DNA from: a virus
Reading direction: 5' to 3' (one strand)
Length of the DNA stretch: 45,932 bases
Virus record (IMG/VR): IMGVR_UViG_3300037511_000088
Location: 1-45,932 of that record
Position numbers and translations under genes: made by a program. Under the pieces are notes generated by a model. The model was not told the DNA's origin and ran no database searches. It saw only the letters and a program-made list of their open reading frames with translations. Below are positions 16,265 to 39,734 of this stretch, piece after piece (positions within the stretch are counted from its first letter, which is position 1; each line of letters begins with the position of its first letter).

Positions 16265-16449
16265 TGGGGATCTCCCGTAAGCGCTGCACGGCCCAGATCG
16301 GTGATCACCCAGCGTCGTGGGTTCATCTCGATCTTCACTAAGCCACCGCGGCGCAGTTTTTGGCGGATCCTGTCTTCTGGCCGGTCGGCATGCTTAAGCC
16401 GCCGTCCGTCGTGCACGCGCTCAAGGAAATCTCGTTCAGCTTCCGTCAT
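16261..16449 (-). CDS. Small winged-helix-like protein (62 aa).
   Basis: ATGA coupling at 16446-16449. Sequence IRQKLRRGGLVKIEMNPRRWVITDLGRAAL. Confidence 0.5.
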   Translation of the reverse strand: MTEAERDFLERVHDGRRLKHADRPEDRIRQKLRRGGLVKIEMNPRRWVITDLGRAALTGDPQ

Positions 16450-17087
16450 TCCGTCTCTCCCTGAATGATGGCGCGAACAGCGAGGGTCTGCTCGGCCCAG
16501 AGTGTTCCGCGCTTGATTTTCCGAACGGCCATCTCGCTGACACCAAATTCCCGAGCGAGGCCGCGCATCCGCTCTCCAGCGAGAGCGCGGCGGCATATTT
16601 CGACTGCTTGAAAGGCTTTGAGTTTGGACGTCTTAACGGCCTCACCCGCGATCAGGGTTCCGTGGCGGCGACGATCTTGACTGTTTTCAGATCTGGTCTT
16701 CCACGACAGATTGCATGCACGAACGTCGTTTCTGATCCCATTTTCGTGCGCGGCCTCCATTCCAGGAGGGGGCTCTCCATGGAAAACGCGGCAGACGAGC
16801 CGGTGAACCTCCAACGTACGCGCAGAGCCGCCCTTGTTTAGGCAGACGAACGGGTATCCCTTTCGGCTCAGCTGCTGGGCCAGGATCCCGCCGGGGACAC
16901 GAACCGTCTGCCGATAGCCCTTGGTTTGGCGCTCGAAGACTCTGGGTATCGACTTAACGCGGCCCTCACTACTTACGCGATAATGCCCTTCATAGCCTGG
17001 CACATCTCGCCACTCCTCGCTCAGCCCGGCAGCGATCTTCTCTGCGTCGGTCATGCAGACCTCTCCCGCACTATGCTGAGCGGTCAT
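16446..17087 (-). CDS. HNH homing-type endonuclease with NUMOD4-like, HNH_3-like and C-terminal HTH regions (213 aa).
   Basis: WRDVPGYEGHYRVSSEGRVKS; HRLVCRVFHG...AHENGIRNDVRACNLSWKTRSENSQD; ATGA coupling at 17084-17087. Confidence 0.75.
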   Translation of the reverse strand: MTAQHSAGEVCMTDAEKIAAGLSEEWRDVPGYEGHYRVSSEGRVKSIPRVFERQTKGYRQTVRVPGGILAQQLSRKGYPFVCLNKGGSARTLEVHRLVCRVFHGEPPPGMEAAHENGIRNDVRACNLSWKTRSENSQDRRRHGTLIAGEAVKTSKLKAFQAVEICRRALAGERMRGLAREFGVSEMAVRKIKRGTLWAEQTLAVRAIIQGETE

Positions 17088-17605
17088 GATTGCACCGACC
17101 GAGTTAGGGGCCGCATCCAACGGCGCTTTTTCTGAGCGTTGACGGCCGGCTTGCGGCGGCGCGACGGGCGGTCCCATTCCTCGGCCCGCGTCTCGCCCAT
17201 GTCTATAAATCCAGCAGCTCGCAGGGAGGCGCCGCTTTCGCCGGGCAGCGTGTACGTCCACGCCTCGCGATATCCGAGCGCGCGAGCTGCGCGGCACAGG
17301 CTGCCGTATATCATCGTGCAGGCTGGAGCGGCGTGATTGCCGACTGGAGCCAAGCCCGACACCACAGCGACGCGGCTGATCACGATGCGACCAGTGCCCT
17401 GCCAGACCCGCGCCGGGTTGCCAGCGATACCGACGCCGACCTGTTGGCCGCCACGATTGACCGCGACTGCGAACAGGCCGCCCTGCACGTTCGGCAGGTG
17501 CCGATGCGTATCACGCACCCACTGCTGAGCTGCTTTGACGCTGCACGGCTCAAGCATGAAGCTGCCCGTCGCGCTCTCTACGCGATCTGCGAGTGATAGG
17601 GTCAT
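17084..17605 (-). CDS. XF1762-family-like (GNAT-fold-like) protein (173 aa).
   Basis: WVRDTHRHLP...GVGIAGNPARV...ISRVAV...LGYREAWTYTLPGESGASLRAAGF pattern, as recalled for this prophage family. Not verified by search. Confidence 0.5.
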   Translation of the reverse strand: MTLSLADRVESATGSFMLEPCSVKAAQQWVRDTHRHLPNVQGGLFAVAVNRGGQQVGVGIAGNPARVWQGTGRIVISRVAVVSGLAPVGNHAAPACTMIYGSLCRAARALGYREAWTYTLPGESGASLRAAGFIDMGETRAEEWDRPSRRRKPAVNAQKKRRWMRPLTRSVQS

Positions 17606-17997
17606 GGCTGGACCGTCCGGGTGAGGCGAGCAAAAATGCCTTCCGCGCTACGTTCAGCGTCGATCTGCTGAGCGTCGGGCAATCGCCGCGCAATGGCCGT
17701 TACAAGCCCCTCGCCGGTCACGAGATCGCCCGCCAGTTCCGTGTGGTCGAGGTCCGCGCAGGCATCCTCAAGCCGCGCCTTCAAATTCAAAGCGCAATTG
17801 CCGATCAGGAACCACGCTTTGATGACCCATGTGTGGCCGTGAAGCCGCCCGTCTTCCCCGCGATGCGCTGAGCAGATATGCGTGGATACGCCAGTCAGGA
17901 CCATGCTTGCGCTCCAGCCGGTCAGCATATCGGTTTCGTCCGGTCCATTGAGCAGTTCGCTCGCCAACGACAGGGTCTTCGGCGTCAATCCAGTCAT
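17602..17997 (-). CDS. QueD / 6-pyruvoyl-tetrahydropterin synthase-like protein (131 aa from ATG 17997; alternative starts 17928 and 17904).
   Basis: SAHR...DGRLHGHTWVIKAWF...ADLDHTEL aligns by eye with E. coli QueD AAHRL...CGRLHGHSF...RLDHHYLN. GC3 favours this frame from 17997. Confidence 0.6.
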   Translation of the reverse strand: MTGLTPKTLSLASELLNGPDETDMLTGWSASMVLTGVSTHICSAHRGEDGRLHGHTWVIKAWFLIGNCALNLKARLEDACADLDHTELAGDLVTGEGLVTAIARRLPDAQQIDAERSAEGIFARLTRTVQP

Positions 17998-18620
17998 AGC
18001 GGTGCCCGTTCTGCGCGAGGCTGGTGCTGTCCGCCCCGATGAACGGGTAGTCGAACGCCACCTTGATCCCGCGCAGCATGTGCAGCGGGTGCCAGTGATT
18101 CCCCATGAGTTGGGCAACCTCGTCCATCTTCCGGCGGTATGCATCGCATCCAACCGGCTCCCGCTTCGGATCGCCGATCCAGCCTAGACAGACCCGATCG
18201 TAGCGCTCGCACAGCCTGCCTAGCCGCTCTATCGGGCCGTCCATGTGCCAGACTGGCGCGCCCCTGGATCGCCCATAGGGCCAGTCGTTCAGAAGCCCGT
18301 CGTTGAGCTGGGACGGAGCAGAGGGAATATCGGGGATGATCGCCCACCGCCCCGGCTGCCACAGCATCGGATCGAGCCACCTGTGATAGTCCGACCATTC
18401 CAGCTTCGCCGCGTCCTCTGGAGCAGCACCGGCCCGAAGCGCCGCCATCCAAATTGAGAAGCCGCCCGGATCGAAACATCAGGTACGGGCAAGCAGCCAG
18501 CACCCTCCGTAGCTGATCGGGGCGAAAGAATGAGACGCAGGCAGCGCGGCCCGGCATCACTGCATCAAACGCAGCGTTCGGCGTCATCGGCGTGCCGTGA
18601 TAGATCACAGCCTCACCCAT
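17994..18620 (-). pseudogene. DpdA / tRNA-guanine-transglycosylase-like gene split over reading frames. Either a pseudogene or recoded.
   Basis: The N-terminal 49 codons (ATG 18620, GGAGGTG RBS) run in one frame up to ATG-TTT-CGA at 18479-18471. The protein-like sequence then continues in the +1 frame from 18478 to about 18000, with no stop there. Confidence 0.55.
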
Positions 18621-18993
18621 TTCCCACCTCCGTAAAGGTTGGAGAGGGGGAGGCTTTGGCGATTGCGGCGCGGGCATGCCTGATGACGTCGGGGTAAAGG
18701 GCGTCGTCGGCCAACTTTCGGCGATAGACCGCGTTATCGAATAGCCCGAGGAAGTTTTGAACAGCTTCCAGAAGCTCAGGAGCGGCGGCGATCAGGCGGG
18801 CGTTGGCCTCCGTTTCCCTCGCGACCTTCCGGCCCGCTCCTTCGAAGACAATGGATTCGGCATTCGGTCCCACAATCGACCAATCGTCAGATGGAGACAG
18901 GGCCTGATCCGGACCAGAGGTGTGGCGCACAATCTTCCATGGACCCGGCGTATGCCCATCAACACGGATTCCGGGTATTGTCTGGTTAACCAT
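18613..18993 (-). CDS. Ea22-like early protein (126 aa).
   Basis: GGAGGG RBS before ATG 18993. Carries the HTPGPWKIV...TEANARLIAAAPELLEAV signature. Confidence 0.6.
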   Translation of the reverse strand: MVNQTIPGIRVDGHTPGPWKIVRHTSGPDQALSPSDDWSIVGPNAESIVFEGAGRKVARETEANARLIAAAPELLEAVQNFLGLFDNAVYRRKLADDALYPDVIRHARAAIAKASPSPTFTEVGNG

Positions 18994-19777
18994 TAAGCCC
19001 TCCAACGGTTTGGGTGGGGGACTTGGCGATCAGTGCCCGCCCGATCAGTTCGGGGATCTGCGGAACTACGGCGTTTCCGAGGCTGTGCAGTCGGTCCACC
19101 CAATCGGCAGGCCGGTCATCCATTCCCCGAAGCAGGGGTTGAGGAAAACGATCATCTCCACCAAAGGCAGAATACGCGACGTCGAACAGATCCGCCGAGC
19201 CACCCGGCCACCCTTGTCCAGTCGCGCCAGCACGGACGCTCTCGAACAGTCCTTCCATTCGCTGGCCGGCAGGGTAGGCAGCAATCCACGCCCGTTTGCG
19301 GGCCTGAGGGGCGCCGACCGCGAAGGCTGGCACAGTATCCCATTCCGCATCGTACCGGCGTGCGGCAAGGCACCGGAGTACGACGTCAAGTCCGTCCCCG
19401 GTGAGGCGATCGACGTTTTCGATGACGACCGCTTCCGGTTCGAGTTCGCCGATGAGGCGATCATATTCGAACCATAGCCCGCTCTGATCTCCGTCGAGCC
19501 CGCTGTCTCCACCGTGGACAGATGCGGCGATGCTGACATTCTGGCAGGGGAAGCCGCCCCAGATGGCGTCCACAGCAATTCCATCGGCAGCGAGCCGTTC
19601 AGCGGTAAGGCTGCGCACGTCGTCATAGCAGGGGACCTCGGGCCAGTGCTTGGCCAGCACGCGCCGGCAGAAGGGGTCGATCTCGCAGAACGCCACGGTG
19701 CGGAAGCCGCCCGAACGCTCCATGCCGAGATCGAACGCTCCGATGCCGGAGAAAAGGGAGAGGCCGCGCTTCATCAC
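18986..19777 (-). CDS. DNA (cytosine-5)-methyltransferase (about 262 aa).
   Basis: Motif I LFSGIGAFDLG, motif IV GGFPCQ, VVIENV, and motif X LGNAVVPQI. ATG at 19774 (GTG at 19777). Confidence 0.85.
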   Translation of the reverse strand: MMKRGLSLFSGIGAFDLGMERSGGFRTVAFCEIDPFCRRVLAKHWPEVPCYDDVRSLTAERLAADGIAVDAIWGGFPCQNVSIAASVHGGDSGLDGDQSGLWFEYDRLIGELEPEAVVIENVDRLTGDGLDVVLRCLAARRYDAEWDTVPAFAVGAPQARKRAWIAAYPAGQRMEGLFESVRAGATGQGWPGGSADLFDVAYSAFGGDDRFPQPLLRGMDDRPADWVDRLHSLGNAVVPQIPELIGRALIAKSPTQTVGGLNG

Positions 19778-26144: not shown

Positions 26145-26359
26145 GACTGGCGATCTTTCCGAACGATGCGCCATTCGAGATTGAGCGCATTGAGGATGGA
26201 AGTGCCGGGAAGGCGCTTACCGTTCAGAAATTCGCTGACGTGGCTCTTGTTGACGCCGTGATGCTTCGACCAGCCGGGAATGCCCGTAGAGCCGACGCGC
26301 TTGGTCTTGAACTTGCTGGCGCGCTTCATGAGCAATGCGCGGATCTGATCAAGGGTCAC
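26141..26359 (-). CDS. Small HTH-like DNA-binding protein (72 aa).
   Basis: GTGA coupling at 26356-26359. WSKHHGVNKSHVSEFLNGKRLP helix-turn-helix-like segment. Confidence 0.5.
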   Translation of the reverse strand: MTLDQIRALLMKRASKFKTKRVGSTGIPGWSKHHGVNKSHVSEFLNGKRLPGTSILNALNLEWRIVRKDRQS

Positions 26360-26754
26360 GCGCCGGGCTCCCGCGACGTTGGACCGAGAAAGTCTTGGAC
26401 AGCAGCAACCCAAGCATTGGCCTGCTCGTGCGCCGTGTAGATCATGCCCGATGCCATATAATTGATGGCACCCCTCTCAGTCTGGAAGGTGCGGCCCCAA
26501 TCAAGCCATTCGGGATGCGCGTCCGAGCGGTGGAACATGTGCCAGCCATCGCTCTGGCGCTCGATGCGGTACAGCGTTCCGGCATAAAGGCAGTCCTTGC
26601 GGGTCAGCGTGCCGTCAGCGTTGCGCACGATTTTGAATTCAATGGTCTCCTGCGCCTGATCGAAGCCCGTAAGGGGCGAGACCGGAACGGGCTCGACGGG
26701 AACCGCGAGAGCAGGTTGCGCGCGCAGCGCGTCGCTCAAGTCATTGTTTTTCAT
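26356..26754 (-). CDS. Hypothetical protein (132 aa).
   Basis: ATGA coupling at 26751-26754. Confidence 0.55.
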   Translation of the reverse strand: MKNNDLSDALRAQPALAVPVEPVPVSPLTGFDQAQETIEFKIVRNADGTLTRKDCLYAGTLYRIERQSDGWHMFHRSDAHPEWLDWGRTFQTERGAINYMASGMIYTAHEQANAWVAAVQDFLGPTSREPGA

Positions 26755-32073: not shown

Positions 32074-32228
32074 TCGACTGGCGTCCGAAAAAGCCCGGCA
32101 AGCAGCTATGCCCGCAGTGCTCGCACACCCGAAAAAACAAGAGGGAAACGTGCTTGAGCGTGACGGAGAGCGACGGGGAATTGGTCTGGTTTTGCCACAA
32201 CGGCTGCGGTTTCAAGGGAGCGACACAT
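32067..32228 (+). CDS. Primase zinc-ribbon segment (about 54 codons), in a different frame from the TOPRIM-helicase body.
   Basis: ATG 32067 overlaps the upstream stop (ATGTTGA). CPQCSH...FCHNGCGFKG is a CxxC...CxxxC zinc ribbon. The frame then reads through non-protein-like sequence to 32591. Confidence 0.45.
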
Positions 32229-33651
32229 GATTCACGACCGGCACAGGACTTGGCTGGACGCGCGCGGCATCGACCCGGCGCTGGCGGAGAAGTTCGGGCT
32301 GGAGACCGTGCAGCGAGAAGGCGGCTTCTGGTTGTCGGTTCCCTATCTCGAGAAGGGAGAGGCGCTGAACCACAAGTACCGGCAAACGAGTACCAAGGAT
32401 CACCGGATGGATACCGGCGCTCCGCTCTTGCTGTGGAACGCCGATGCGCTGTCGCACCCGGACGTGCTGAACGGCTCGCCCGTGATCATCACGGAGGGCG
32501 AGTGGGATGCGTTGGCGGCGATGACGGCCGGGCTGAAACACGTCGTATCAGTGCCCAACGGCGCACCCCAGGACACCACGCCAGAGCCTGAGAACGCCAA
32601 GCGCTACGAGTTCGTCTGGCGCCACATCGATGCAATCGACAAGGTCAAGCAATTCATCATCGCGACCGATGGTGACCGGGCAGGGCGCATTCTGGCGGCC
32701 GATCTGGTTTCGTTGCTCGGCGCGGAGCGCTGCCGGTTCGTTCAATATCCCGAGAAATGCAAGGACCTGAATGATGTCGCGCTGGCATATGGCCATGCCG
32801 CGGTCGTTGAGATCATCCATGCATCGAAGCCCTATCCGATCAAGGGCCTCTACACGATGGACGATTTCCCCGAGAAAGCGGAGGTCGTTTCATTTCCTGT
32901 CGGCATCGATCCAATCAACGACATGATCCGCATAGTGCCAGGCACCCTGACCGTGTTCACCGGTTATGCGAATATGGGCAAAACCACGGTGATGAATGGC
33001 GTGATTGCCAACGCGCTTTCGCATAACGTGCCGACCTGCGTCGCATCGTTTGAGACGGACGTGAAGCCGATCCTGAGAGACGGATTGCGGGCAGCGATCA
33101 TGAAATGCAGCGCGAGCGATTTGCGGACCCGCGACACCAGCGCAGCGGATGAGCTGATCCGCGACAATCTCACCATCATCACCCAGGCCGTCGATGAAGA
33201 CGACGAAATGGATATCGCAGCGTTCCTCGAATATTGCCGGATATCGGTCGTCCGCGACGGGACGAAGCTGATCGTTCTGGATCCTTGGAACGAGGTCGAG
33301 CACAAGCGTCGGCGCGACGAGAGCGAGACGGAATACATTTCGCGCGCCCTTCGCATGGTGAAGAAGTTCGCCAAGCAATACGACGTGGCATTCTGGATCG
33401 TCGCCCACCCGACAAAGCCGATGGACGGCCGGATGCGCGTTCCCGGTCTCTACGAGATCAGTGGATCGGCAAATTGGGCGAACAAAGCCGATTATGGTCT
33501 GACCTACCACCGACCGAAGCCTGACGTGAACGAGGCAGAATTGCGCGTGACGAAGGTTCGTATGGGCCTGCCAGGCAAGAAGGGCAGCGTCACGGTCACC
33601 TATGATTTTCGGTCGAGCGAGTTTCGCAAGGTTGAAGGGTTCGGAGGCTGA
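32227..33651 (+). CDS. Bifunctional TOPRIM primase / DnaB-RecA-type helicase (T7 gp4-like; 474 aa).
   Basis: TOPRIM ITEGEWDALA and IATDGDRAG. Walker A GYANMGKTT, Walker B LIVLDPWNE. AAGGGAG RBS 6 nt before the ATG. Confidence 0.85.
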   Translation: MIHDRHRTWLDARGIDPALAEKFGLETVQREGGFWLSVPYLEKGEALNHKYRQTSTKDHRMDTGAPLLLWNADALSHPDVLNGSPVIITEGEWDALAAMTAGLKHVVSVPNGAPQDTTPEPENAKRYEFVWRHIDAIDKVKQFIIATDGDRAGRILAADLVSLLGAERCRFVQYPEKCKDLNDVALAYGHAAVVEIIHASKPYPIKGLYTMDDFPEKAEVVSFPVGIDPINDMIRIVPGTLTVFTGYANMGKTTVMNGVIANALSHNVPTCVASFETDVKPILRDGLRAAIMKCSASDLRTRDTSAADELIRDNLTIITQAVDEDDEMDIAAFLEYCRISVVRDGTKLIVLDPWNEVEHKRRRDESETEYISRALRMVKKFAKQYDVAFWIVAHPTKPMDGRMRVPGLYEISGSANWANKADYGLTYHRPKPDVNEAELRVTKVRMGLPGKKGSVTVTYDFRSSEFRKVEGFGG

Positions 33652-34357: not shown

Positions 34358-34813
34358 GTGCCTGCGGGACGGCCGACAGCATACAAGGCGGAGTACGCCA
34401 AGCAGGCGGAAAAGCTGACGGCTCTCGGCGCAACCGATCAGGAAATCGCCGATTTCTTCGAGGTTGATGTCCGCACTATCTATCGTTGGAAGCATGACCA
34501 CGACAAATTTTGTCAGGCCCTAAAGGTTGGCAAGGATGTGGCCGACGAGCGTGTTGAGCGCAGCCTGTACCAGAAGGCGATAGGCTACGAGCAGGACGAG
34601 GTGAAGATATTCATGCCCGCCGGTGCTGCCGATCCGGTCTATGCGCCGTTCCGAGCGAAGATCGCACCCGACACAACGGCGGCGATCTTCTGGCTGAAGA
34701 ACCGCCGGACAGCCACATGGCGCGAAAAGGTCGAGACCGAGCACAGCGGGACTGTGAACGTCACGCGAGTGGAACTGATCGGTGGCGACAGCCCAAGTAA
34801 AACTCCCGCCTAA
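34358..34813 (+). CDS. terS: Terminase small subunit (151 aa).
   Basis: GRPTAYKAEYAKQAEKLTALGATDQEIADFFEVDVRTIYRWKHDHDKFCQALKVGKDVADERVERSLYQKAIGY. Confidence 0.75.
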   Translation: MPAGRPTAYKAEYAKQAEKLTALGATDQEIADFFEVDVRTIYRWKHDHDKFCQALKVGKDVADERVERSLYQKAIGYEQDEVKIFMPAGAADPVYAPFRAKIAPDTTAAIFWLKNRRTATWREKVETEHSGTVNVTRVELIGGDSPSKTPA

Positions 34814-36098
34814 GCTCATCCCCGTCTTCACGGGCGAGGCGCGCTATCGTGGGGCATGGGGCGGCAGAGGCAGCGGCAAGACGCAATCCTTCGCCAAGAT
34901 GACAGCAGTCCGCGGTTACATGTGGTCGGTATCTGGTGAGCGAGGCGTGATCGTCTGCGGTCGTGAGTTCATGAACAGCCTGGATGAAAGCTCCATGGCT
35001 GAGATCAAGGCGGCGATCCGGTCCGAGCCCTGGCTTGAAGCGCATTACGACATCGGCGAAAAGTTCATCCGGACCAAGGACGGGCGGATCGAATACAAGT
35101 TCACCGGTCTTGATCGCAACATCGACAGCATCAAGTCGAAGGCGCGGATCAAGCTGCTGTGGATCGACGAGGCCGAGCCGGTAAGCGAGAGCGCCTGGCA
35201 GACGGCGATCCCATCGGTTCGCGAGCACGATTCCGAAATCTGGGTGACGTGGAACCCGAAATACAAGCACAGTGCTACGCACAAGCGCTTCAGGCTCAAC
35301 CCGCCTGACGATAGCAAGATCGTCGAGCTGAACTATCGCGACAATCCATGGTTTCCACTCGTTCTGGAGAAGGAGCGGATCGAGGATCTGGTCAAACGGC
35401 CGGAGAGTTACCCGCACATCTGGGAAGGCGACTTCGTCTCGATCGTCGAGGGCGCCTATTACGCGCAGTCCCTGTCGCTGGCCCGATCGCAGAACCGGAT
35501 CTGCCCGCTGGCCGTGGACCCGCTCATGGAGATATGGGCGTTCTTCGATATCGGCACGCGCGATCACACGGCAATCTGGGTGTGCCAGTTCGTCGGCGAC
35601 CGCATCAACTGCCTGGATTATTACGAGGCGTCAGGGCAGCCCCTCGCTACGCATCTGCAATGGCTGCGCGACAATGGTTATGGCAAGGCGATCTGCGTTC
35701 TTCCGCACGACGGTAGCAACGTCGATCACTTCAGCGCCATGCGCTATATCGATCACGTTCAGGAAGCGGGCTTTCGTGCAGACGTGATCCGCAACCAGGG
35801 CAAGGATGCCGCGATGAAGCGCGTGGAGGCAGCGCGCAGGCTGTTCCCGTCCGTCCGCATCGATCCGGAGCATTGCAGCCCCGGCATAGACGCGCTGGCG
35901 GCCTATCACGAGAAGCGCGATGATAAACGGGACATCGGACTTGGCCCTGAGCATGATTGGGCGAGCCATGGAGCGGATGCGTTCGGGCTGATGGCCGTTG
36001 CAAAGCCGCTACTCGTGGACAATCTCGGTCGCGGCATGGAAGATGATCATGACGATCGCCGGCAGCACGCGGGGCGGTCTGAGGCGACGGGGTATTAG
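34782..36098 (+). CDS. terL: Terminase large subunit (438 aa).
   Basis: Walker A GGRGSGKT, Walker B LLWIDEA. C-terminal nuclease-like region FFDIGTRDHTAIWV...DHDWASHGADAF. Confidence 0.85.
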   Translation: MATAQVKLPPKLIPVFTGEARYRGAWGGRGSGKTQSFAKMTAVRGYMWSVSGERGVIVCGREFMNSLDESSMAEIKAAIRSEPWLEAHYDIGEKFIRTKDGRIEYKFTGLDRNIDSIKSKARIKLLWIDEAEPVSESAWQTAIPSVREHDSEIWVTWNPKYKHSATHKRFRLNPPDDSKIVELNYRDNPWFPLVLEKERIEDLVKRPESYPHIWEGDFVSIVEGAYYAQSLSLARSQNRICPLAVDPLMEIWAFFDIGTRDHTAIWVCQFVGDRINCLDYYEASGQPLATHLQWLRDNGYGKAICVLPHDGSNVDHFSAMRYIDHVQEAGFRADVIRNQGKDAAMKRVEAARRLFPSVRIDPEHCSPGIDALAAYHEKRDDKRDIGLGPEHDWASHGADAFGLMAVAKPLLVDNLGRGMEDDHDDRRQHAGRSEATGY

Positions 36099-37314: not shown

Positions 37315-37611
37315 ATGAGCAACGGGCTCTCCATAATTGAGCCTGCACGTGTAGCGGGCGGATTGGGCGGGAAGCTGCTCGATTCCGCCCGCTACTTCGT
37401 GGACAGCGACAAGGACATCGTCGCCTATGCCATCACCGGCATGTACGCGGACGGTTGCCCATTCGTCATGACGCGCTGCGATTGGCCGGAGACGATGCCG
37501 CTCAACCGTCATCTCTTCATTGGCATGTCCGCGGAGCTGATCCGCGATTCCATGATCACCGAACGCACCGCTTGCGAAGTGGTCAATCGTTCGAACGGGT
37601 ATGACGATTGA
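37315..37611 (+). CDS. Hypothetical protein (98 aa).
   Basis: ATGA coupling to the portal gene. Confidence 0.5.
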   Translation: MSNGLSIIEPARVAGGLGGKLLDSARYFVDSDKDIVAYAITGMYADGCPFVMTRCDWPETMPLNRHLFIGMSAELIRDSMITERTACEVVNRSNGYDD

Positions 37612-39734
37612 TGGCCAGCGCATTCCAAGACGACATAATCAATGACGCTGAACCGATCGTCGATCAGGACGAATTGCTCGCGGCTGAGGCAGAAAAGGCG
37701 CGTCGTGACCAAGCCTTGGCGCTCCTCGCTGAGATTGCCTCGCACAACGGTGACCTATCCCAATTCCTCGACGAGCAGGCACTGACCACGCTCGGGCATG
37801 ACGTCGTTCGCGATTACGAACTGGATTGCCAGGCGCGATCTGATTGGGCAACTGTCGTCAAGAAGGCGCTCGAAAACGCGGCGCAAGAGACGAAGGAAGC
37901 CAAGAACTACCCGTTCGAGAAGGCTTCGAACGTTCGTTATCCGATCCTGACCATCGCAGCGACCGAGTTCAATGCGCGCGCCTATCCGGCGATCGTGAAG
38001 GGCGACGAGACGATACAGGTCAAGGTCGTCGGTTCGGACAAGGGCCGTCCGCAGATGATGCAGACGCCACAAGGCCCCATGCCTGTGCCGCAGATGCAGC
38101 CGAACCCCGAGACTGGCGAGCCTGTGCCGGTGATGGGGCCCGATGGTCAGCCGATGCCGGTCTGGGAAGTCCCACCCGGCGCAAAGGCATCTCGAGCCCA
38201 GCGTGTGAAGGATTATCTCAACGTCGTCCTGAACTATCGCATGACGGATTGGGAAGCTGACACGGACTCGATGCTGTATCAGCTCGCGATCGTCGGCTGT
38301 GGATTTCGCAAATGCTGGTGGGAGACCCGCAAGAGCAAGCCATGCTCAGCTTATGTGCCGGCGCTCCGCCTGATTGCGCCGATGGATGCGAAGAGCGTCG
38401 AGACCACGCCGCGTCTGACCGAGGAAATCCCCGATGAATTCCCGTATCAGATCCGCCAGAAGATGGCTTCTGGGGAGTATCGCAGGGTCGAACTGACGCC
38501 GCTGACGGAAGATGATGAGGCGGCCCGCATGCTGCTTGAGCAGCACCGGCTCTATGATCTCGACGGCGATGGCTTCGACGAACCGTACATCATCACGGTT
38601 GACAAGGAGACGAGCGAGGTTCTGCGCGTCGTGGCCGCGTTTGGCCCTGACGATGTGCGGATCTCCGAAGACGGGCTTGTCGAAGAGATCGAGAAATCGA
38701 CCTTCTACATCAAATACGACTTCCTCCCGCACCCCAGCGGCAAGTTCTACGGCATCGGCCTAGGCCACTTGCTCGCAGAGCTTGGTGAGGTGATCAACAC
38801 CACGATCAATCAGATGATCGACGCTGGCCATGCCCAGATCGCAGGCGGCGGCTTCATCGCGTCCGGTCTGAGATTGCAGGGCAGCGGGCAGAGCAACACG
38901 CTTCGCTGGCGCCCCGGCGAATACAAGGTGGTGACGGCCGGTGGCGGGTCTTTGCGAGAGAGCATTTACGAGCGCACGTTCCCCAATCCATCGCCGATCA
39001 TGTTCAACCTGCTGGATCTCATTCTCGGTGCAGCGAAGGACGTTGCCGCGATCAAGGACGTGACCAGCGGCGATGCGTCCAATCAGGGGCAGGTCGGCAC
39101 CACACTCGCACTGATCGAGCAGGGATTGCAGGTGTTCACTGCGATCTACAAGCGCGTCTATCGGGCTCTCAGGGCAGAATTCCAGCTGCTTTACGAAAAT
39201 CTGGGGGCGTACGGCTCGGAGGTGAACGCCAAGGATTATATCGACGTTCTTGACGACCCCCGCGCTGATTTCCAGGCCGATTTCAACCTGTCCGACATGG
39301 ACATCCGCCCTGTTTCGGACCCGGGATCTGTCACGCGCCTCCAGAAGATGGCGAAGGCGCAATTCCTCATGCAGACGGGGCAGAATAACCCGAACGTGGA
39401 CCAGCGCGAGCTGATCTTGCGGGTCTATGAAGCTGCGGACGTCGAGGACATCGAGAAGCTGGTGCCGCCGGCCAATCCTAACGCTCCGCCACCGCCTGAA
39501 GTACTGAAGATCGATAGCGAGACGAAGCGCAACCTTGCGCAGGCGGCGCTCTACGAAGCTCAGATTCCCGGCAAGCAGGCCGAGGTACAGAAGATTGCTG
39601 CGGACGCCGGCAAGCTGGCGGCGCAGGCAACACAGATCGGGGTCGATACTGGCCTCAAACTTGGAGAGGCAGATGCCGATGGCGTCGATAACACGGGACG
39701 AGTTCACGCAGTGGCGGGAGCACCCGATAACTGA
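37608..39734 (+). CDS. Portal protein (708 aa).
   Basis: Size and position after terL. NYPFEKASNVRYPILTIAATEFNARAYPAIV and a long helical C-terminal barrel-like tail. Confidence 0.75.
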   Translation: MMASAFQDDIINDAEPIVDQDELLAAEAEKARRDQALALLAEIASHNGDLSQFLDEQALTTLGHDVVRDYELDCQARSDWATVVKKALENAAQETKEAKNYPFEKASNVRYPILTIAATEFNARAYPAIVKGDETIQVKVVGSDKGRPQMMQTPQGPMPVPQMQPNPETGEPVPVMGPDGQPMPVWEVPPGAKASRAQRVKDYLNVVLNYRMTDWEADTDSMLYQLAIVGCGFRKCWWETRKSKPCSAYVPALRLIAPMDAKSVETTPRLTEEIPDEFPYQIRQKMASGEYRRVELTPLTEDDEAARMLLEQHRLYDLDGDGFDEPYIITVDKETSEVLRVVAAFGPDDVRISEDGLVEEIEKSTFYIKYDFLPHPSGKFYGIGLGHLLAELGEVINTTINQMIDAGHAQIAGGGFIASGLRLQGSGQSNTLRWRPGEYKVVTAGGGSLRESIYERTFPNPSPIMFNLLDLILGAAKDVAAIKDVTSGDASNQGQVGTTLALIEQGLQVFTAIYKRVYRALRAEFQLLYENLGAYGSEVNAKDYIDVLDDPRADFQADFNLSDMDIRPVSDPGSVTRLQKMAKAQFLMQTGQNNPNVDQRELILRVYEAADVEDIEKLVPPANPNAPPPPEVLKIDSETKRNLAQAALYEAQIPGKQAEVQKIAADAGKLAAQATQIGVDTGLKLGEADADGVDNTGRVHAVAGAPDN

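Follow-up and report, generated by a model that had tools for sequence, protein, structure and literature searches.

A putative programmed +1 frameshift in a family of DpdA-like genes of prokaryotic viruses

Programmed +1 ribosomal frameshifting is an already known kind of event, of which, to our knowledge, few cases have been found in bacteria and their viruses, with prfB, the gene of release factor 2 (RF2), as the standard example. Here we analyzed a viral sequence of 45,932 nucleotides (nt) (IMG/VR record IMGVR_UViG_3300037511_000088, in the following called the window), in which a gene related to the phage DpdA proteins is distributed over two reading frames that meet at ATG TTT CGA (18471-18479; all features of the DpdA-like locus lie on the minus strand). 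Based on the comparison of related loci, we consider it very probable that programmed +1 ribosomal frameshifting at ATG TTT C produces the full-length DpdA-like protein.

The prfB site (CUU UGA C) and the DpdA-like site would share a bacterial +1 slip of the P-site tRNA to an equal or better pairing (from CUU to UUU in prfB, from UUU to UUC in the DpdA-like gene), a short and deeply conserved site, a GGAGG-type element upstream and a full-length protein which is obtained only via the shift. However, whereas the stop codon in the A site of prfB senses the RF2 level, the DpdA-like site carries the sense codon CGA and its unshifted frame (frame 0) stays open for approximately 155 codons, and the Shine-Dalgarno sequence of prfB is located 3 nt upstream, compared to 27-29 nt for the GGAGG of the DpdA-like gene. 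Reporter studies of the Curran laboratory reportedly found that UUU-pyrimidine sites support a +1 shift in E. coli, and these sites, like CUU AGG C of yeast Ty1, resemble the present one by a slippery P-site tRNA that is helped by a slowly decoded A-site codon; CGA is decoded through inosine:A wobble. The E. coli sites were engineered or represent low-level error, and Ty1 is a eukaryotic retrotransposon, whereas the DpdA-like site is natural and conserved in a family of prokaryotic viruses, where, unlike in the E. coli and Ty1 logic, a second site (site 2, see below) needs no slow codon. Among phages, Listeria phage PSA is said to use +1 frameshifts in its capsid and tail genes, which together with the -1 shift of the tail-chaperone genes G/GT resemble the proposed event in that frameshifting sets the ratio of two products from one start. 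Those are structural genes giving two functional proteins with a common N-terminus, whereas the DpdA-like gene encodes a predicted enzyme and its unshifted product has no conserved sequence. For the tail-chaperone shift, efficiencies of about 6-7% have been described (PMC3711429).

Full-text searches combining DpdA or deazaguanine with frameshifting yielded nothing relevant, and neither the two principal papers on DpdA nor the GeneTack survey or the recoding review of 2016 touches on the subject. What the present case adds is a new gene family, a UUU_C site with a sense codon that turns up at several positions, a distant GGAGG and an unshifted frame that selection keeps open. The known cases would thereby be joined by a complete family, which has dozens of members in prophages, those of sphingomonads among them. 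The case also offers a cassette of about 60 nt usable for the study of +1 frameshifting, and raises a possible link of anti-restriction DNA modification with translational control. In addition, because the RefSeq and IMG annotation of these proteins is N-terminally truncated, surveys of DpdA and of 7-deazaguanine DNA modification would undercount these genes.

The DpdA-like gene and its two reading frames

The gene starts at ATG 18620-18618, 4 nt downstream of the Shine-Dalgarno sequence GGAGGTG (18625-18631), as read from the sequence, and its start codon overlaps the 3' end of the upstream open reading frame (ORF) 18613-19005 (ATGGGTGA), as expected for translational coupling. Frame 0 reads MGEAVIYHGTPMTPNAAFDAVMPGRAACVSFFRPDQLRRVLAACPYLMF, and its codons 1-49 (segment 1, 18474-18620, MGEAVIYHGTPMTP...ACPYLMF) align to the N-termini of intact homologues and end within the shift site, which consists of ATG (18479-77), TTT (18476-74) and CGA (18473-71). 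Segment 2 lies in the +1 frame (17768-18472; 234 codons according to translation and alignment) and extends from Asp50 (GAT, 18472-70), the first codon after the shift, to TGA 17770-68. Two codons ahead of the site the +1 frame is shut by a TGA, followed by (C)FDPGGFSIWMAALRAG..., and from this opening (TGA-TGT-TTC-GAT) it continues as (F)DPGGFSIWMAALRAG... to TGA 17770-17768. An earlier note on this DNA, made from the letters alone, had given the start codon with its GGAGGTG and had the protein continue in the +1 frame with no stop before 17768; re-reading of the letters found its coordinates and sequences correct, and translation confirmed the continuation. The gene call of the Joint Genome Institute (JGI) (P0001, 226 aa) comprises the +1 frame from the internal ATG 18448 only, and the same call is present on two JGI contigs (45,932 and 45,875 nt).

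Past the shift site, frame 0 continues for 159 stop-free codons of Arg/Gly/Ala-rich composition (17994-18473) and ends at TGA 17996-94. This stop overlaps ATG 17997-95 of the third frame, which is the frame of the downstream QueD-like gene, forming an ATGA (17994-17997) within TAT GAC (Tyr-Asp) of the DpdA-like sequence; the ATGA had been noticed before and is not only present in the window but a conserved feature of the relatives with the same shift site. The codon tally over 16 confident ORFs of the window gave 19 CGA among 274 Arg codons (7%) and 13 TTT among 136 Phe codons, meaning that both are rare in the window, yet CGA is not the rarest Arg codon.

The family profile PHROG 887 ('queuine tRNA-ribosyltransferase') matched residues 5-206 of the joined protein (E=3e-28) and thereby spans the junction at residues 49/50. 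The protein search, over 5.8 billion sequences, retrieved 388 relatives, of which the best intact ones (232-237 aa, single frame) align end-to-end with the joined protein, and across the junction ..PF(V/I)MYDNGAFSYWM.. of the intact proteins stands opposite ..PYLMF|DPGGFSIWM.. of the window. Furthermore, AlphaFold2 on the joined sequence together with 58 intact homologues predicted one (beta/alpha) barrel (predicted local distance difference test score 92.3, predicted template modelling score 0.88), the strands 1-3 of which come from segment 1. The shared family match and the single predicted fold indicate that segments 1 and 2 are one gene and encode one predicted protein, in support of the same claim in the earlier note. 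Two of the checks proposed there were run. The comparison of homologues revealed many relatives with the same frame structure and others encoding the enzyme intact in a single frame. The profile search with the joined protein gave the PHROG 887 match across the junction, but scans against Pfam and NCBIfam retrieved no tRNA-guanine transglycosylase (TGT; PF01702) or DpdA/TGT model at E<=1. PDB sequences searched with the family profile gave no match.

The TGT/DpdA superfamily includes transglycosylases that place 7-deazaguanine bases into phage DNA. Foldseek against the PDB found generic triosephosphate isomerase (TIM) barrels only, their template modelling (TM) scores being about 0.4, and the 50 matches listed included neither a TGT nor a DpdA entry; against the predicted viral structures of BFVD it found many phage 'queuine tRNA-ribosyltransferase' models (E 1e-8 to 1e-5, TM 0.5-0.78). 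Asp50 is invariant in 59 intact homologues, with Gly52, Phe54 and Ser55 nearly so, and Asp50 and the DxGxFS motif occupy the D-x-G-G-F/Y position after strand 3; we take this motif to be the equivalent of the TGT motif TDSGGFQ carrying the catalytic Asp. By tblastn, homologues were detected in the Salmonella phages 7-11, SE131, SEN1 and BTP1 and in Pectobacterium phage PEAT2 (30-37% identity, E down to 7e-29). All of these are listed as DpdA-encoding ('singleton DpdA') in the Supplementary Data of Hutinet et al. 2019 (PMC6884629), and the DNA of phage 7-11 contains 2'-deoxy-7-amido-7-deazaguanosine (dADG) at a low level (Hutinet et al. 2019, PMC6884629). We use the label DpdA because of PHROG 887, the BFVD matches and the homology to phage 7-11; by homology, the window protein would be a distant member of the phage DpdA lineage with a predicted activity, and the locus is best explained as a single gene whose product is a small TIM-barrel enzyme from the TGT/DpdA superfamily. 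The singleton DpdA proteins of the 7-11 type are homologous to it, but, unlike in the window, each of them is encoded in one frame and appeared as one tblastn piece. Distant intact homologues in Pseudanabaena phage Pam5 (L081, 4932-5465) and Escherichia phage Phleasolo (H67) adjoin genes of the VUT family (YhhQ-like preQ0/preQ1 transporter family). These VUT neighbours and the QueD-like neighbour in the window point to preQ0 metabolism and support a link to 7-deazaguanine metabolism.

Shift sites and coding constraints among relatives

We gathered 73 loci from IMG/VR and three from GTDB, and ran tblastn with the joined protein over 81 loci in all; every shift among these 81 loci was +1. Three relatives with N-truncated calls, examined beforehand (from JGI, Logan and ENA assemblies), all had about 49 frame-0 codons, ATG TTT CGA and then D(H/P)G(G/A)FS in the +1 frame. 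Approximately 40 loci shift at residue 49/50 as in the window (site 1, invariant ATG TTT C|GAY) and approximately 28 are intact in a single frame (ATG TAC/TAT/TTC GAY), with exactly one T less at the junction than the site-1 loci; the window site in its in-frame version, with one T removed, is ATGTTCGAT. Approximately 12 further loci shift at residue 193, after DYPF (site 2, CCN TTT C|NNN), and one locus each near residue 78 (L056, CCC TTT C|TAT) and near residue 46 (L049, CCC TTT T|GTC), all four shift positions in the family being TTT followed by C or, in L049, by T. The site-2 loci (L032, L035/36, L043, L046/78, L048, L062, L065/70/72 and L077) differ in the next frame-0 codon (CAT, CGT, CGC, CAC or CCA). 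About ten database proteins (P0076, 87, 88, 94, 95, 107, 109, 110, 114 and 120) are read-through calls of site 2 (..DYPFRQRGQH..).

At site 1, ATGTTTCGA is invariant in 35 loci (34 distinct sequences), while the third codon positions around it mostly show three or four different bases, with a synonymous divergence (dS) of about 1.6. The junction ATG-TTT-CGA, earlier proposed as a +1 site from the window alone, is supported, being invariant amid otherwise saturated synonymous sites. A neighbour-joining tree of the shared core distributed the site-1 loci across several deep clades and placed the intact Sphingomonas-type group as one shallow clade beside the window. The site-1 structure was found in independent JGI, ENA, Logan and NCBI assemblies, including the isolate genome of Sphingobium yanoikuyae (GCA_003951335.1; sequence QRAL01000008.1). 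In RefSeq the corresponding entries are 'hypothetical proteins' of 183-196 aa without the first 57-60 residues or so, and the frameshift is unannotated (WP_313337183.1, WP_314717452.1, WP_375187772.1, WP_125998167.1 from S. yanoikuyae, WP_370171337.1 from S. abikonense and WP_380909450.1 from S. olei); likewise, calls that lack the N-terminus and begin with MAALRAG or MRAG, like the one of the window, account for about 24 of the 120 top-ranking database proteins.

Upstream of site 1, the GGAGG element (GGAGGG; 18504-18508) is separated from TTT by 27 nt in the window and by 29 nt in relatives. Counted from its first base, it begins 34 nt before TTT in 35 of 35 site-1 loci (32 nt in the window, 18508-04), compared to three of 36 other loci with GGAGG at -34 or -35. 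The third codon positions -34, -31 and -22 are an invariant G in the site-1 loci even where the encoded residues differ, and GGAGG is kept though the window encodes L-R-R at this position and the relatives L/V-E-A, so that the alignment points to an element conserved at the nucleotide level. A Shine-Dalgarno-like element of the prfB type, about 3 nt upstream, was found nowhere adjacent to site 1. Concerning the other sites, site 2 is frequently preceded by GGGG(G) at a distance of 24-27 nt (L032 is without), and GGAGG is found at 17 nt in L056 and at 20 nt in L049. An upstream G-rich element shared by all sites was rejected, as the spacing is not constant, and only the GGAGG of site 1 was accepted.

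The unshifted frame is constrained as well. Downstream of the shift, 33 of 35 site-1 loci have an open frame 0 of 135-281 codons (mode 154-160), even those with a G+C content at third codon positions (GC3) of just 0.45-0.5, compared to 0-81 codons for the same frame in almost all intact loci; in L056, frame 0 is open for 157 codons after its own shift site. A synonymous T at the third codon position before a codon starting with AA, AG or GA would create a stop in frame 0. In the site-1 loci such a T is found at 2.6% of these positions versus 25.3% elsewhere (Fisher p=1.5e-56), while in the other loci the values are 22.5% and 22.2%, meaning that stops are not avoided there. Most of the exceptions come from L064 (IMGVR_UViG_3300050144_000083), the sole site-1 locus with an immediate frame-0 stop (ATG TTT CGA TAA), where the avoidance is lost, with T at 13 of 26 stop-prone positions, and the layout is nearer to that of prfB. 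The frame-0 product as a real protein was rejected, since no Pfam family matched it and there is free variation at its first codon positions. Judging from these alignments, what is conserved in frame 0 is its openness and not a peptide sequence, and this openness is under strong selection in the site-1 relatives over about 155 codons. The description of frame 0 in the window as degenerate from 18473 onward consequently holds for its Arg/Gly-rich composition, but the frame is not merely degenerate. Moreover, the stop of frame 0 is in most cases the TGA contained in TAT GAC (Tyr-Asp, close to residue 205): ATGA is located at the same place in 24 of 34 site-1 loci, with GTGA or TTGA in five more, and a third-frame ORF starting at ATGA runs into the downstream gene. 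The respective Tyr codon is TAT/CAT in 21 of 27 site-1 loci versus seven of 19 others.

Proposed mechanism and alternative explanations

According to the proposed mechanism, ribosomes would initiate at ATG 18620 and translate 49 codons, after which peptidyl-tRNA-Phe (GAA) on UUU (18476-74) in the P site would slip by one base to UUC (18475-73). tRNA-Phe (GAA) reads UUU by G:U wobble and UUC by G:C, thus the slip would swap a G:U wobble for a G:C pair, and a +1 slip in the P site should be favoured because UUC pairs better with this tRNA. Decoding would then resume at GAU (Asp50 of the D-x-G-G-F-S motif) and lead to a 283-aa enzyme, whose predicted tryptic junction peptide is VLAACPYLMFDPGGFSIWMAALR. 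Non-slipping ribosomes would read CGA, stay in frame 0 and end at ATGA, in the frame of the next, QueD-like gene. The open frame 0 might thereby keep the mRNA covered with ribosomes, counteracting polarity, and couple the downstream genes, with a minority of ribosomes making DpdA. What the sequences show is the frame structure, the deeply conserved shift site, the conserved GGAGG, purifying selection on both segments and the avoidance of stops in frame 0, whereas the ribosome as the shifting agent, tRNA-Phe as the slipping tRNA, the efficiency of the shift and the roles of GGAGG and the open frame 0 are inferred.

Several points weigh against this mechanism. The trans-frame product itself is a prediction. 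UUU_C is found in frame at seven other places in window genes, and seven of 13 in-frame TTT of the confident ORFs are followed by C (TTT_C-containing ORFs 26356-26754, 32227-33651, 34782-36098 and 37611-39734), so the tetramer is not avoided in ordinary genes of this phage. The tetramer alone therefore cannot be highly shifty, and a low efficiency or an additional stimulator or context must be assumed. The A site holds neither a stop nor a uniformly rare codon, with CGA at 7% of Arg codons at site 1 and common codons such as CGC at site 2. In addition, the GGAGG spacing of 27-29 nt is far beyond the known range, given the 3 nt that stimulate the prfB +1 shift. An Rfam search for an RNA stimulator or a preQ1 riboswitch returned nothing at E<=10, and a pairing of GAGGCG with UGUUUC suggested by RNAalifold (-4.5 kcal/mol) showed no covariation and was not accepted as structure.

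A rare, slowly decoded CGA had been assumed in the earlier note. CGA does make up only 7% of the Arg codons, but it is not the rarest of them, and as a general driver we rejected it, because the A-site codon of site 2 varies and UUU_C is what the sites have in common; at site 1, CGA is forced by the C and the following Asp codon GAY. It is further conceivable, although rather doubtful, that the site acts as a two-output device, in which most ribosomes restart at ATGA on the preQ0-pathway gene and a set minority makes DpdA, the distant GGAGG serves as a long-range stimulator and the rate might respond to the state of the tRNA. The codons following the shift at site 1, GAY and then CAY/AAY, are read by queuosine-modified tRNAs, and the queuosine precursor preQ0 is the substrate of DpdA itself. 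This link between queuosine and the codons applies to site 1 and L056 (TAT), yet fails at site 2 (ATC, GTC, GCC, ACC, CAA) and was put aside as speculation. On the reading as a two-output device, the emergence of the same TTT_C solution at three or four positions would mean that the family specifically needs frameshift-limited expression.

Recoding by another route is unlikely, but the best of the alternatives: RNA polymerase could slip and drop one U, a special tRNA could decode UUUC as a quadruplet, or the DNA could switch phase between TT and TTT. The data require that one base at TTTC is skipped and leave the manner of skipping to each of these routes, and genes for DNA modification are sometimes phase-variable (Antonov et al. 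2013, PMC3711429). However, a run of three T is far below the at least 7-9 bases of known polymerase slippage tracts (PMC3711429). A frameshift-suppressor tRNA provided by the element was rejected, as no tRNA gene is located in the window, which also speaks against quadruplet decoding. Regarding a phase switch, closely related copies all have TTT (L003 = L004; L083-85) without any TT/TTT polymorphism. Moreover, selection for an open frame 0 implies translation of both frames from a single template.

Slightly less probable again is a split or truncated gene, in which no shift occurs, the product starts at Met58 or Met61 (MAALRAG.../MRAG...) and the 49-codon ORF either encodes a small peptide of its own or is a relic. 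It is exactly this N-truncated form that gene callers and RefSeq annotate, and Met58 is conserved, in intact homologues too. Against this, the residues Asp50 to Trp57 (DxGxFSxW), which precede Met58 and include the invariant Asp, are conserved in every site-1 locus when read in the +1 frame. In 11 of 34 of these loci, one of them the window, the open part of the +1 frame upstream of Asp50 amounts to just two codons (TGA TGT TTC GAY) and offers no start codon, so that DxGxFSxW cannot arise by initiation in these loci. Segment 1 is under purifying selection in frame 0, with a ratio of nonsynonymous to synonymous divergence (dN/dS) of 0.14 and a dS of 1.57 (44 codons, 30 site-1 loci), and segment 2 in the +1 frame has a dN/dS of 0.22 over the 14 gap-free codons directly after the shift, dS being about 1.4-1.6 in both segments. 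The single barrel of the joined model takes its strands 1-3 from segment 1, the exact 9-mer is invariant whereas a relic should drift, and shift sites 2 and 3 fall mid-barrel or at the barrel end, where a split gene fails. Taken together, the conservation, the purifying selection and, in these 11 loci, the lack of a start codon ahead of DxGxFSxW argue for the exclusion of error, decay and a simple split gene, and thereby also of the pseudogene decay and the assembly indel that had been left as options for the window. A sequencing or assembly indel or a recent pseudogene in this contig alone can be dismissed with near certainty: a single extra base is the commonest cause of an apparent frameshift in metagenome contigs, but about 40 divergent loci, which stem from isolate genomes and from different samples and assemblers, have the same extra T, the two JGI contigs share the identical downstream call, and both halves are under purifying selection.

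The 3' end of the gene and its neighbourhood

At the 3' end, the homologous DpdA core ends in the alignment at Lys238 (17908-06; ..NGHRYDW...YADRLERK), well beyond 17997, and between 18440 and about 17950 the +1 frame has a GC3 of 0.7-0.9. Its dominance by GC3 lasts until about 17950-17900, and the QueD-like frame is favoured from about 17950 onward. The switch of GC3 to the QueD-like frame at 17997 that had been read from the sequence was therefore not confirmed, and a second, compensating frame change at this end can be set aside, because both the continuation of the core and GC3 indicate that there is none. The QueD/PTPS-like ORF in the third frame (17602-17997, minus strand) comprises 131 aa when counted from ATG 17997. 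The alternative start ATG 17904-02 results in 100 aa (MVLTGVSTH...) and has a GGAG (17915-12) 7 nt upstream; the conventional start is probably this ATG 17904, whereas initiation at ATG 17997 via ATGA is possible. The ORF matched Pfam PTPS with E=4.7e-4, just below the cut-off, and TIGR03367 (QueD) weakly, and its orthologue in L057 passes the Pfam PTPS threshold (26.5 bits). Downstream, a 173-aa ORF without Pfam match (17084-17605, minus strand) overlaps the QueD-like stop by 4 nt (17602-17605). In many loci the QueD-like gene is replaced by a small conserved protein (...ISPxEFxxxCxxIVxxHSGHxAHxxLDxLVTExLSSLGYSEGMAIFLAHV...), also without Pfam match, which lies just downstream of or overlapping the DpdA 3' end (L005, L006, L007, L026, L030, L040, L050, L054, L066, L069 and L073).

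Beyond the core, a 45-aa tail in the +1 frame extends to 17768, overlaps the QueD-like gene and ends with ...RQLRFEFEGAA (QLRFEF, 17783-17800, minus strand). Long +1-frame tails are common among the site-1 relatives, whose proteins then stop at residue 252-284. In many proteins of the frameshifted clades, the tail has a variable linker and closes with QLGLL, QLGLW, QFGLW, QLSLDF, QLPFVF or QLGLF (L005-7, L026, L030, L040, L050, L053, L054, L057-61, L063, L066, L069 and L073). These endings look similar to the beta sliding-clamp motif QL[SD]LF / QLGLF, QLRFEF of the window may be a degenerate candidate for such a clamp-binding motif, and the clamp-like tails suggest an enzyme tethered to the replisome. 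The tail overlaps the downstream gene in another frame, and the conservation of the motif could partly come from that gene (SSLGYSEG / NYLSIFDH); L057-60 retain QLGLW without such an overlap.

The wider neighbourhood includes the ORFs 18986-19777, 16446-17297 and 18613-19005 (all minus strand), with a phage integrase further upstream in the JGI calls, and encodes a C-5 cytosine DNA methylase (Pfam, 1.5e-32), a NUMOD4+HNH endonuclease and a P22 Y8K6-like protein. The region looks like the early region of a temperate phage, and with the methylase and the DpdA-like gene in the same neighbourhood the element would carry two adjacent DNA-modification functions.

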